Below are positions 57,901 through 60,481 of a stretch of 64,000 nucleotides of DNA, one piece after another. The stretch comes from an uncultured Planctomycetota bacterium. Lineage in GTDB: Bacteria > Planctomycetota > PUPC01. The translations under genes were made by a program, and so were the position numbers. Below the pieces are notes generated by a model. That model was not told the origin of the DNA and made no database searches. It was given only the letters and a program-made list of their open reading frames with translations. The DNA lies in assembly GCA_964385685.1 (NCBI GenBank), contig CAYLQD010000001.1:13432-77431 (forward strand), in the 5' to 3' direction. The first letter of the stretch is position 1, and every line of letters starts with the position of its first letter.

Positions 57901-60481
57901 GGAGCCGCACCTCGATGGGCTGATGGAGCTTGATGCGGCCCTCTTCGAGCGCCAGCAGCGCCTCGTCGGTATCGCTGAAGATCCGGAGAGTGCTTCTCCG
58001 AACCGTTGACCCATCTTTCTTGAGCTTCGTGACCGCCGCGAGTTGTTTCTGCAGGCCTGAGATGCGTTCGTCCAGTTCCTTGGCCGATCCGGAACCGCCA
58101 GCGCAGATCTGTTTGAGGTCTTCAAACAGCTTCGCCGCGTGTTCCGCGTTCTTGGCACCGGCCTTGGCCTTGTTCTGGGCGGTCGTCGCCCAGCCAGCGT
58201 AGAAGAGAGCCCTGTCCACATCGCGAGGCGTGTTGATTACGGATGACTTGTACTGGTCGGCAAGAGCCTTCAAACGCATGAGTGTTTCTTTGTACTCGTC
58301 ACCTGTGTATTGGCCAGAGTCTCTGACTCGGAGTTTCATGCCTCTTCGGACGTGGCGGTCGATGACAGCCGCGGCTTGCGGGTAGCAGAAGGCGAGAATC
58401 GCTGAGGCAAGGCCAGATCCGCCGATCTTCGAGTTGTTGCTCCTGGAAAGGGCATTGTAGGCGGCGACGAGATCGTCAACAGAATCGGGTGTCTCGACCT
58501 TCTGGAGACAAGAGCGGAGCCGCGCCTTCAGTTCGCCGCTGGCGCTCAATTCCTGCAGGTTGCGCGTGGCCTTCGGAAGATTCTCCGCGAACTTGCCTTT
58601 CATCCCGTAGTATTTCCACTCGGCGATTCTTAGCAGCACTTGCAGGATGTCCTCATCCTTTGCGTTGGTCGATTCGCACATGTCGGGCAGCTTTCGCCCC
58701 TCGCTCTCGCACTTCTTGCACAAAGCGGCGTGATTCGGCAATCCCTCCTCGTCCCAGCGGAGATACACGCTATCGAATCCTTTCCGCAATGCGTCGAGAC
58801 CCTTCTGCGCGGCGACGAGTCCATCTCTCTCGTCGCGTGCCTCTGTGATCTGCTCTTTCAGCCGGCGCTCCATCTCGTCTGCAGTTGGGGGAGCAGAGCC
58901 GGCGTCCGTCAAGCCTTCCTGCATCGCGGTCAGGTAGTAGCATCCGAGCACCATGTCGAGCGTCGGGCGAATGATGGGCTGGCCGTCGGCGGGCGAGAAG
59001 ATGTTGTTCGTCGACATCAGGAGGATGGACGCCTCGGCCTGGGCCTCGACGGAGAGCGGCAGGTGCACGGCCATCTGGTCGCCGTCGAAGTCGGCGTTGA
59101 ACGCCTCGCAGACGAGCGGGTGGATCTTGATCGCGTTGCCCTCGACGAGGATCGGCTCGAACGCCTGGATGCCCATCCGGTGGAGGGTCGGCGCGCGGTT
59201 GAGGAGGACGGGGTGCTCGTGGATGACCTCGTCGAGAATGTCCCACACCTCCTCGTCCTTCCGCTCGAGCATCTTCTTGGCCGACTTGATCGTGTCGACG
59301 TAGCCCAGCTCCTTGAGCCGGCGGATGATGAACGGCTGGAAGAGCTCGAGGGCGATCTTCTTCGGCAGGCCGCACTGGTGGAGCTGCAGTTCGGGCCCGA
59401 CGACGATGACCGACCGGGCGGAGTAGTCGACGCGTTTGCCGAGCAGGTTCTCGCGGAACCGGCCCTGCTTGCCTTTGATCATGTCGGTGAGCGACTTGAG
59501 CGGGCGGTTCGAACTGCCGAGGACCGGCCGCTTGGTCCGGTCGTTGTCGAAGAGCGAGTCGACCGCTTGCTGGAGCATCCGCTTCTCGTTGCGGATGATG
59601 ACCTCGGGCGCGTGCAGGTCCTGGAGCTTCTTGAGCCGGTTGTTGCGGTTGATGACGCGCCGGTAGAGGTCGTTGAGGTCGCTCGTGGCGAAGTTGCCGC
59701 TTTCGAGCAGCACGAGCGGGCGCAGGTCGGGCGGGATGACGGGAATCACGTCCATCACCGTCCACTCGGGCTTGTTGGGCGAGCCGTTGATGGCCTCGAC
59801 GAGCTTGAGGCGCTTGACGATCTCGGCCTTGCGCTGTTTCGAGCCGCTCTCGGCGAGTTCGGTTCGCAGGTCCTGTCCGACCTCGTCGAGATCGAGCTCG
59901 AGGAGCAGTTCGCGGACGGCCTCGGCCCCCATGCCGGCCTTGAACTCTTCGCCGTACGTCTCTTTGAGCCGGCGGTACTTGTCTTCCGAGAGGAGGTCGC
60001 GTTCCTTGATGCCCTCGGCCGCGGCGGGGCCGGGGTCGGTGACGAGGTACTCCTGGAAGTAGACGACCTTTTCGAGGTGCGAGGTCTTCATGGCCAGGAG
60101 CGTGCCGAGCCGCGAGGGCATGGCCTTGAAGAACCAGATGTGGCAGACGGGCGCGGCCAGGTTGATGTGCCCCATCCGCTTGCGGCGTTCGCGCGAGTGG
60201 GTGACCTTGACGCCGCACCGGTCGCAGATGATGCCCTTGTGCTTCATGCCCTTGTACTTGCCGCAGAAGCACTCCCAGTCGCGTTCGGGGCCGAAGATGC
60301 GCTCGCAGAACAGACCGTCTTTCTCCGCCCGGTACGTCCGGTAGTTGATCGTTTCCGGCTTCTTCACCTCGCCGTACGACCAGCTCCGGATCTCTTCGGG
60401 CGACGCCAAGCAGATGGAGACGGACGAGAAGTCGTCGCGGTTCCCATCCAGCATGCTCATCTCGGCAGCAAGCTCAGACAT
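54953..60481 (-). CDS. rpoC: DNA-directed RNA polymerase subunit beta-prime (1842 aa, unusually long because of lineage-specific and foreign insertions)
   Basis: N-terminal zinc motif (CERIFGP...CFCGKYK...CDRCGV), catalytic [12 protein letters not shown], bridge helix, trigger loop and C-terminal regions all present and co-linear. One contiguous ORF. Confidence 0.9.
57985..58920 (-). other. in-frame foreign-composition insertion (about 312 aa) within rpoC carrying a Cys cluster and an HhH-GPD-like motif
   Basis: Codon third-position A/T rises to about 35% (codons such as cta, aga, gaa, aaa) versus under 10% in flanking rpoC. Located about 60 residues after NADFDGD, between [10 protein letters not shown] and [15 protein letters not shown]. 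Contains [16 protein letters not shown] and [37 protein letters not shown]. Confidence 0.6.

Follow-up and report, generated by a model that had tools for sequence, protein, structure and literature searches.

We report here a foreign domain inside a core subunit of a bacterial RNA polymerase. The rpoC gene of an uncultured Planctomycetota bacterium, which encodes the beta-prime subunit, carries a block of about 305 codons that is almost certainly a genuine in-frame domain insertion of foreign origin, and we are highly confident that the encoded segment is homologous to the HhH-GPD (HhH, helix-hairpin-helix) and OGG-like domains of DNA glycosylases. The gene lies on the minus strand (54953..60481) of a stretch of 64,000 nucleotides (contig CAYLQD010000001.1 of assembly GCA_964385685.1, positions 13,432 to 77,431 of the forward strand), in the following referred to as the window. 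Further inserts were found in the rpoC genes of related bacteria, and it is likely that the grafting of glycosylase-type domains onto beta-prime recurred independently among them. The best explanation overall, which we hold with about even confidence, is that a horizontally acquired OGG-like domain serves as a base-recognition module on RNA polymerase.

The 1842-residue product contains the Pfam Rpb1 domains 1–5 and matches the rpoC equivalog TIGR02386, and the gene resides in an rpoB-rpoC-rpsL-rpsG operon. A preliminary description of this DNA had presented rpoC as a single uninterrupted open reading frame, with which both the list of reading frames and the translation agree; the two peptides quoted there are present in the translation at residues 588–603 and 678–714. 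The subunit is indeed oversized, but the surplus of about 400 residues given before has to be corrected to ~460 in comparison to planctomycete beta-primes of 1365–1395 residues, with ~305 residues contributed by the glycosylase-like insert and ~160 by an older second insertion. Taking the catalytic NADFDGD loop as a reference point (59078..59098, minus strand, residues 462–468, aligning to E. coli beta-prime 458–464), the insert starts 55–61 residues further on, where a distance of roughly 60 had been estimated.

The boundaries of the insertion could be derived from related genes. A whole-protein search gave planctomycete beta-primes of about 1365–1395 residues together with a tight clade of 14 longer sequences (P0003–P0016), and rpoC was aligned by MAFFT with 19 orthologues (P0003–P0021). 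In this alignment the insertion extends over 57989..58915 (minus strand, residues 523–831, 309 residues, or ~305), close to the 57985–58920 reported earlier. Query residues ~523–831 are missing from all 14 clade orthologues, which display 6–13 variable residues instead, in an empty loop flanked by YYLTA... and ...FSDT.EALLAL. The distribution of the insert thus does not follow the organismal tree, whereas the second insertion is common to the whole clade. The closest relative, P0003 (locus L083), is 87% identical overall, has the same flanking genes (rpoB upstream, rpsL and rpsG downstream), the same GC content as the window (66%) and the same G/C content at third codon positions of rpoC (GC3, 0.926), and features at this site an insert-free loop of 11 residues (EEEG-RAEQVAAAGAR-LKAFSDT). 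The insertion site (site A) falls between E. coli beta-prime residues ~519 and 526, where AlphaFold2 places, in a well-predicted region of an insert-free relative, a short coil that links a helix to a strand. In the scheme of PMC11515920, on which alone the sites were mapped and only approximately, since its 'type 4' numbering is for Xanthobacter, this corresponds to the junction of the universal domain uD3 (pore 1) with the bacterial-specific subdomain bD4.

The block is further set apart by its codon usage. A two-boundary maximum-likelihood change-point scan of GC3 along rpoC delimited a segment of foreign codon usage at 57971..58897 (minus strand, codons 529–837), with a log-likelihood gain of 48.5 compared to 9.7 for the highest of 300 codon permutations. 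GC3 amounts to 0.709 inside the block and to 0.926 in the remaining gene (Fisher test, p = 3e-23); the sliding value of 0.88–1.00 along rpoC drops to 0.57–0.80 between about codons 520 and 840, and the block has an overall GC of 58.3%, compared to 66.3% for the remainder of rpoC. The abrupt switch from native codon usage noted before is thus reproduced, as is the presence of the rare codons cta and aga: CTA was observed once and AGA five times in the block and neither of them outside, accompanied by TCA (4 vs 0) and GCT (7 vs 3). Other candidate reading frames of the window which passed the coding filter have a GC3 of 0.76–0.94, placing the block (0.71) below the local range, and no comparable internal dip was found in any other long reading frame of the window. 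The second insertion of rpoC (residues 1015–1180) can be considered an internal control. Its GC3 of about 0.9 is native, which shows that neither insertion nor weak conservation is enough on its own to depress GC3 in this mRNA. With the closest orthologues being insert-free and the control being native in composition, the foreign and recent origin suggested earlier is retained, and the comparison supports horizontal acquisition after the split from relatives with 87% identical rpoC.

The nature of the encoded domain emerged from profile searches. Taken alone as a 318-residue segment, the insert matches the Pfam family PF21790 ('putative 8-oxoguanine DNA glycosylase OGG-like') with 32.6 bits (E = 8.3e-8, gathering threshold 27), the hmmscan match covering 58202..58681 (minus strand, residues 601–760, insert residues 81–240) and profile positions 46–201 of 201. 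As a single sequence it displayed no relative in PDB, NCBIfam or PHROGs. A tblastn search against plasmids and phages returned weak, near full-length homologues, among them a 200-residue hypothetical protein from a Halobellus plasmid with 27% identity over insert residues 21–243 (pairwise E = 2e-7), from which onward searching led to homologues on other haloarchaeal plasmids, Streptomyces linear plasmids and a Deinococcus plasmid; the pleolipoviruses HHPV3 and HHPV4 contain homologues as well. These stand-alone proteins are ~200 residues long and are located on plasmids, transposon-like units and viruses. In an alignment of the insert with nine of them (A1, ten sequences), the Ala of the second HhH helix and an Asp (D708 of rpoC, within VIDRHV) are invariant, while W622, K623, the hairpin Gly, V706, Y730, R753 and L759 are nearly so, and the insert carries the consensus residue at every one of these columns. 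The A1 profile matched 24 PDB sequences, all of them HhH-GPD glycosylases, with an Ogg2-type 8-oxoguanine glycosylase (E = 1.5e-5) and D. radiodurans EndoIII (2.3e-5) at the top, followed by MutY, M. jannaschii Ogg and T. maritima Ogg. A leave-one-out profile of the nine stand-alone homologues in turn finds the insert at 28 bits, where 1000 shuffles of the insert score nothing. The HhH-GPD resemblance proposed in the preliminary description is thereby substantiated by the PF21790 match and by the exclusively HhH-GPD matches of the A1 profile, and the motif picked out there corresponds to the true HhH hairpin plus the signature Asp.

On sequence grounds, the insert is a complete member of the HhH-GPD superfamily, nearest to the OGG-like and Ogg2 groups and bracketed by helical linkers. 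Its N-terminal helical segment (58742..58897, minus strand, residues 529–580) is a low-confidence helix, which from about residue 541 on could be aligned with the stand-alone homologues. At the other end, a conserved C-terminal family motif with an extension (58181..58225, minus strand, residues 753–767; alignments A1 and A4, BLASTP) is followed by a helical tail or linker leading back into beta-prime (57989..58180, minus strand, residues 768–831). The extension is common only to the insert of a related rpoC gene, P0008, discussed below, to whose tail the linker is partly homologous.

The HhH segment (58388..58444, minus strand, residues 680–698) aligns to LPGVG..A of the homologues, one of which passes the Pfam HHH family PF00633 at this position, and to GLGMKEAS or GIGYKEAS of the Ogg2 structures. 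D708 (codon 58358-58360, in the VIDRHV motif at 58349..58366, minus strand) occupies the HhH-GPD signature Asp position and aligns with the Asp of IIDRHI in Ogg2-type chains and of VDTHV in EndoIII. The nearly invariant W622-K623 pair (58613..58618, minus strand, within IAEWK; A1 columns W102 and K103) also occurs in the insert of P0008. The Lys nucleophile of bifunctional glycosylase-lyases (GxGxK) is absent, with Gly at its position in the insert and Ser, Ala or Pro in the homologues. Since the Asp is retained, the domain could still perform monofunctional glycosylase chemistry. The C-terminal iron-sulfur loop of the EndoIII/MutY type (C-x6-C-x2-C-x5-C) is likewise missing, and the only Cys cluster of the insert lies upstream of the HhH. 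This cluster, H584-x3-C588-x2-C591-x10-C602 (58676..58732, minus strand, in a low-confidence region of the model), represents a possible small metal-binding knuckle. The Cys cluster pointed out before does exist (C588, C591, C602), but it is not conserved, most homologues being gapped at these columns and none having a Cys cluster, which makes it the weaker part of the earlier interpretation.

The insert in the window is not the only one. The leave-one-out profile also matches P0008, a 1781-residue rpoC of the same clade, at residues 1486–1655. The insert of this gene (rpoC at L093 8001-13346) comprises residues 1446–1690, 245 in total, and follows query residue 1750, E. coli ~1294 (site B), at the end of subdomain bD7 and thus in a different loop from site A; in a 1046-residue fragment of insert-free beta-prime, both sites are confidently modelled as short coils between secondary-structure elements. 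The inserts of P0008 and of the window are 34% identical over 143 residues (BLASTP E = 5e-14; global alignment z = 12.7), and their likeness extends past the Pfam domain into a common tail (RALFY.GWATT..K..AE.A..LF). With 22 bits on PF21790, the P0008 insert retains the W-K pair, the HhH, VIDRH and the terminal motif. A profile built from these two RNA polymerase inserts alone gave only two PDB matches, both M. jannaschii Ogg, at a weak E of 0.3. A further insert at site B was observed in P0013 (rpoC at L094 750-6740, 1996 residues; insert 1554–1905, 352 residues), where a split barrel-sandwich domain encloses a nested segment with an IPVD motif, a terminal D-x-ALW motif and a C-x4-C-x2-C cluster. 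Compared to the OGG-like family profile this insert is not significant, only the terminal D-x-AL-W motif being aligned. We tentatively regard its nested segment, for which AGOG is the best, though sub-threshold, Pfam match, as glycosylase-like; P0013 is probably a third graft, of a related superfamily member.

Both additional inserts are lower in GC3 than their own genes (0.61 vs 0.80 in P0008, 0.59 vs 0.90 in P0013). In a tree calculated from pairwise identities over core columns by the unweighted pair group method with arithmetic mean, each of the three carriers falls into a group with relatives that have no insert. Since the host genes of the window and P0008 are 76% identical and their inserts only 34%, it is more parsimonious to assume that each insert was acquired separately from a diverse pool of donors than that a single ancestral insertion changed its place. 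The domain was absent from the other 80 rpoC loci of diverse bacteria and from the rest of the window. That a single domain superfamily turns up repeatedly in a sample of 15 sequences speaks for selection, and similar foreign inserts in two related bacteria render it unlikely that the fusion is an accident.

Neither a donor nor closer relatives were found among 5.8 billion proteins by word-indexed searching with the entire insert and its core, by phmmer against 1.84 billion cluster representatives, where inserted rpoC genes are hidden behind insert-free representatives, in metagenome scans with the insert and a three-sequence alignment, or in viral scans; within the window, no donor copy was found either. 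A scan of 185,579 species genomes was swamped by the universal ADFDGDQM pattern, and no absence of the insert is claimed from it. The 90%-identity cluster containing the window rpoC is represented by a 204-residue fragment, so that even the source protein escapes an insert-based search of clustered databases. Inserts within conserved proteins are hence systematically hidden by such clustering.

The genomic setting of the stand-alone homologues deserves separate mention. On Streptomyces linear plasmids (L084 2884-3516, L089 2833-3462), they directly follow genes of the Mu-transposase-C-terminal and TniB families. In Tn5053/Tn7-like elements this is the place of the target selector TniQ, and the position hints at a DNA-targeting role for the family. 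On haloarchaeal plasmids (L082 3794-6316, L088 1465-3540), a gene for a large HEAT-repeat protein (HEAT repeat / PDS5) starts a few to about 20 bases downstream of the homologue, which suggests a two-gene unit. In HHPV3 (L087 42-713), the annotated coding sequence of 110 residues is shorter than the 223-residue reading frame that holds the whole domain.

We propose a model in which RNA polymerase would carry a tethered base-flipping DNA-recognition module that inspects the DNA near the transcribing enzyme for non-canonical bases. The module would act either as a monofunctional glycosylase via D708 or as a catalytically silent sensor, comparable to the PF21790-type domain of END nucleases, and its purpose would be either protection from phages whose DNA has modified bases or a transcription-coupled search for lesions. 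Base recognition is put forward because the END sensor domain sets which hypermodified DNA is targeted and because the stand-alone homologues live on plasmids, transposon-like units and viruses, among which genes for defence and counter-defence are exchanged. That the insert actually has a base-surveillance or defence function is, by analogy, a tentative suggestion which we consider somewhat short of even. Defence genes are in general sporadic and compositionally foreign, and so are the RNA polymerase inserts, although this link is one of analogy only. DNA glycosylases are established antiviral effectors, as described for Brig1 (PMC11078745), and restriction glycosylases of the R.PabI superfamily excise or sense unusual bases as an anti-phage strategy (PMC10273834). 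Unlike the inserts, Brig1 and R.PabI have different folds, are free-standing and operate outside the transcription machinery.

The closest parallel to a sensing role is found in END nucleases, whose C-terminal sensor domain matches PF21790 according to the HHpred analysis of the authors and decides which hypermodified phage DNA is targeted (bioRxiv 10.1101/2025.03.31.646159). The insert resembles this sensor in being devoid of the Lys nucleophile and in being fused to another enzyme rather than free. However, it is internal to the essential beta-prime, in contrast to the terminal fusion of the END sensor to a PLD, PD-DExK or McrB-type effector, and it keeps the signature Asp, whereas the sensor of END(PaCF1) is described as lacking catalytic residues (bioRxiv 10.1101/2025.03.31.646159). 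The surroundings differ from an END or defence context as well, with the rpoC operon as host and no effector or defence island, a 13-bit PifA fragment being the only PADLOC match. In terms of structure, the family profile has its best PDB matches in the archaeal glycosylases of the Ogg2/AGOG type (M. jannaschii Ogg, PDB 3KNT/3FHF; 9O00-9O03). They share the domain size of ~200 residues, and the HhH hairpin and the Asp motif (IIDRHI, VIDRHV in the insert) align without gaps. They differ in having the catalytic Lys where the insert has Gly, and the likeness is detectable by profiles only, the single-sequence search of the PDB being empty.

Known insertions in beta-prime comprise HABAS (barrel-sandwich; SI3), BEAN or sLC modules with a distribution that follows phylogeny (PMC11515920). 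Like these, the insert is an extra domain in a surface loop, sites A and B being located at the edge of bD4 and the end of bD7, both of which are named as hosts of lineage-specific insertions (PMC11515920), and the glycosylase-like segment of P0013 is even nested in a barrel-sandwich domain. The insert itself gave no barrel-sandwich or biotin-lipoyl-type Pfam match and its low-confidence secondary structure is all-helical, so that it is not of the HABAS/SBHM, BEAN or sLC type. In contrast to the ancient lineage-specific insertions, it is a domain of a DNA-repair-type enzyme superfamily, occurs in single sequences, is foreign in composition and is recent. It is thus a lineage-specific RNA polymerase insertion set apart by domain type, recent horizontal origin and recurrence, and our text searches of the literature returned no report of a glycosylase-type domain in an RNA polymerase subunit.

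Several observations weigh against base recognition by a glycosylase-type domain. As the canonical Lys is missing, classical OGG (glycosylase/lyase) chemistry is excluded. The HhH-GPD fold is inferred from sequence profiles, since the single-sequence AlphaFold2 model of the insert, although all-helical, is unusable (predicted local distance difference test score 48.5), and Foldseek gave no meaningful match with this poor model. No donor closer than ~27% identity was found. The inserts of P0008 and P0013 each rest on one contig, and the best Pfam match of the nested P0013 segment, AGOG N-glycosylase/DNA lyase, is sub-threshold at E = 1e-3. The pore-1 location of the insert in the window may be far from the DNA path. 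Finally, each insert is young and present in one sequence among 15 clade members, which is equally expected of transient, non-adaptive insertions.

The last point leads to the main rival of the base-recognition module, a functionless passenger. Here, a plasmid, virus or transposon gene would have been caught by illegitimate recombination in a permissive loop of rpoC, where it is tolerated and due for loss or decay. An insert so young that its GC3 is unameliorated, and missing from the 87%-identical sister, would be expected in this case, just as the residence of the stand-alone homologues on mobile elements, and both sites are short loops at or near places for which PMC11515920 records tolerated lineage-specific insertions. 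Random capture, however, hardly accounts for one superfamily having entered two different loops independently on two and probably three occasions among 15 sampled clade members. The insert is moreover a whole domain with linkers rather than a fragment, with an undisturbed reading frame and no conserved residue of the family lost, and neutrality is hardly to be expected of 305 additional residues in the gene that is under the strongest constraint in the cell. Taken together, we consider a mere passenger unlikely, yet a real possibility.

A role in DNA binding without any base recognition was also taken into account. The domain would then be a non-specific clamp, with the HhH as a sequence-independent DNA handle that alters processivity, promoter complex stability or salt tolerance. 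A conserved HhH motif in a domain devoid of the Lys nucleophile fits such a handle, and chimeric DNA polymerases reportedly become more processive and more salt-tolerant when HhH domains are appended, a result attributed to Pavlov and colleagues in 2002. Simple backbone binding would however not require the invariant Asp and the other conserved positions outside the HhH (W-K, Y, RDVD), nor would it explain that a whole, presumably two-lobed glycosylase domain was kept instead of merely HhH repeats, which renders the clamp improbable.

The preliminary description had offered two alternatives, a laterally acquired domain grafted into an essential gene and a selfish in-frame element, of which the former is favoured by our results. 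In the latter, a cassette would spread between rpoC alleles, with the glycosylase-like domain damaging insert-free alleles to induce gene conversion, as in an intein without splicing. Foreign in-frame DNA inside conserved genes is known from inteins and Rickettsia palindromic elements. As with the palindromic elements, the insert would stay in the mature protein, but it is far longer than these, encodes a folded domain family and has no repeats. A selfish element would be in accordance with the sporadic occurrence in closely related sequences, the foreign composition, the in-frame junctions and the location in a highly conserved essential gene. Recent homing would nevertheless lead to the opposite of what is seen for the inserts of the window and P0008, which reside at different sites and are 34% identical in hosts that are 76% identical, and the two inserts sharing site B are not detectably related. 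No terminal repeats, target-site duplication bracketing the insert or neighbouring mobility genes were found, and we know of no glycosylase-based homing system. A selfish element is therefore very improbable. A perfect 11-nt direct repeat, CGGCGTCCGTC, occurs at 57871-57881 and 58900-58910, with one copy at the 5' junction of the insert (..TDAG..). Its partner (..TDAD..) lies downstream of the 3' junction by 30 codons, so that the insert is not flanked by the pair, which is probably due to chance.

That the block is an assembly or binning artefact in a chimeric contig, or is removed as an intein or intron before protein maturation, is suggested by the abrupt composition change only and can be dismissed as extremely improbable: the exact 1842-residue protein is recorded on 3–5 contigs of different lengths in the three archives NCBI, JGI and ENA, which speaks against a chimera, a 19-kb JGI contig (locus L081) is identical to the window across 10,394 bases, both junctions are in frame within a loop, and two more assemblies carry analogous inserts. 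The lack of intein hallmarks stated earlier is confirmed, in that the insert matches none of the Pfam families for Hint domains, inteins or homing endonucleases even at an E of 10 and has junction residues G|L and T|L (..QEG|LTDAG.. and ..RRST|LRIF..) in place of the intein-type Cys/Ser ... His-Asn|Cys/Ser/Thr. An intein is rejected on these results, and so is an intron, for which Rfam gave no match.

Apart from the glycosylase-like insert, the older insertion of beta-prime displays features of its own. It is located at 56942-57439 of the window (residues 1015–1180, about 165 residues), contains two internal repeats, and is common to 14 of the 14 clade orthologues and absent from other planctomycete rpoC genes. 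In relatives it scores as 2–5 copies of Pfam DUF7662 (PF24698), with varying copy number. It lies between E. coli beta-prime residues 706 and 711, inside uD4, a domain that is not among the seven insertion locations of PMC11515920. Elsewhere in the window (23177-30621, minus strand), uvrA (949 residues, from 26026) adjoins an unusually large protein of ~1540 residues, in which Pfam recognises only a PPIC-type peptidyl-prolyl isomerase domain at the C-terminus. The remainder of the window is a ribosomal protein, rpoA, secY and thrS region with one tRNA at 34926-35000.

The core subunits of RNA polymerase are among the most conserved proteins, and the insertions described so far are ancient, structural, rich in beta-structure and track phylogeny. 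It would be a bold step, and at present a doubtful one, to conclude that this Planctomycetota clade has repeatedly built a glycosylase-superfamily module into its RNA polymerase, with the enzyme itself detecting and perhaps excising non-canonical bases. If true, this would be the first DNA-repair or defence enzyme domain within a core subunit of a cellular RNA polymerase, and it would represent either an innate immune sensor for modified phage DNA embedded in RNA polymerase or transcription-coupled base-excision repair without a coupling factor. If the domain works, transcription would be physically coupled to the recognition of damaged or modified bases, opening a new route to transcription-coupled repair or phage sensing. 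The case would then in addition provide a natural example of the tolerance of RNA polymerase to domain grafting, with two precisely defined loops, and even if the domain is only a passenger, it shows that horizontal domain capture reaches rpoC.

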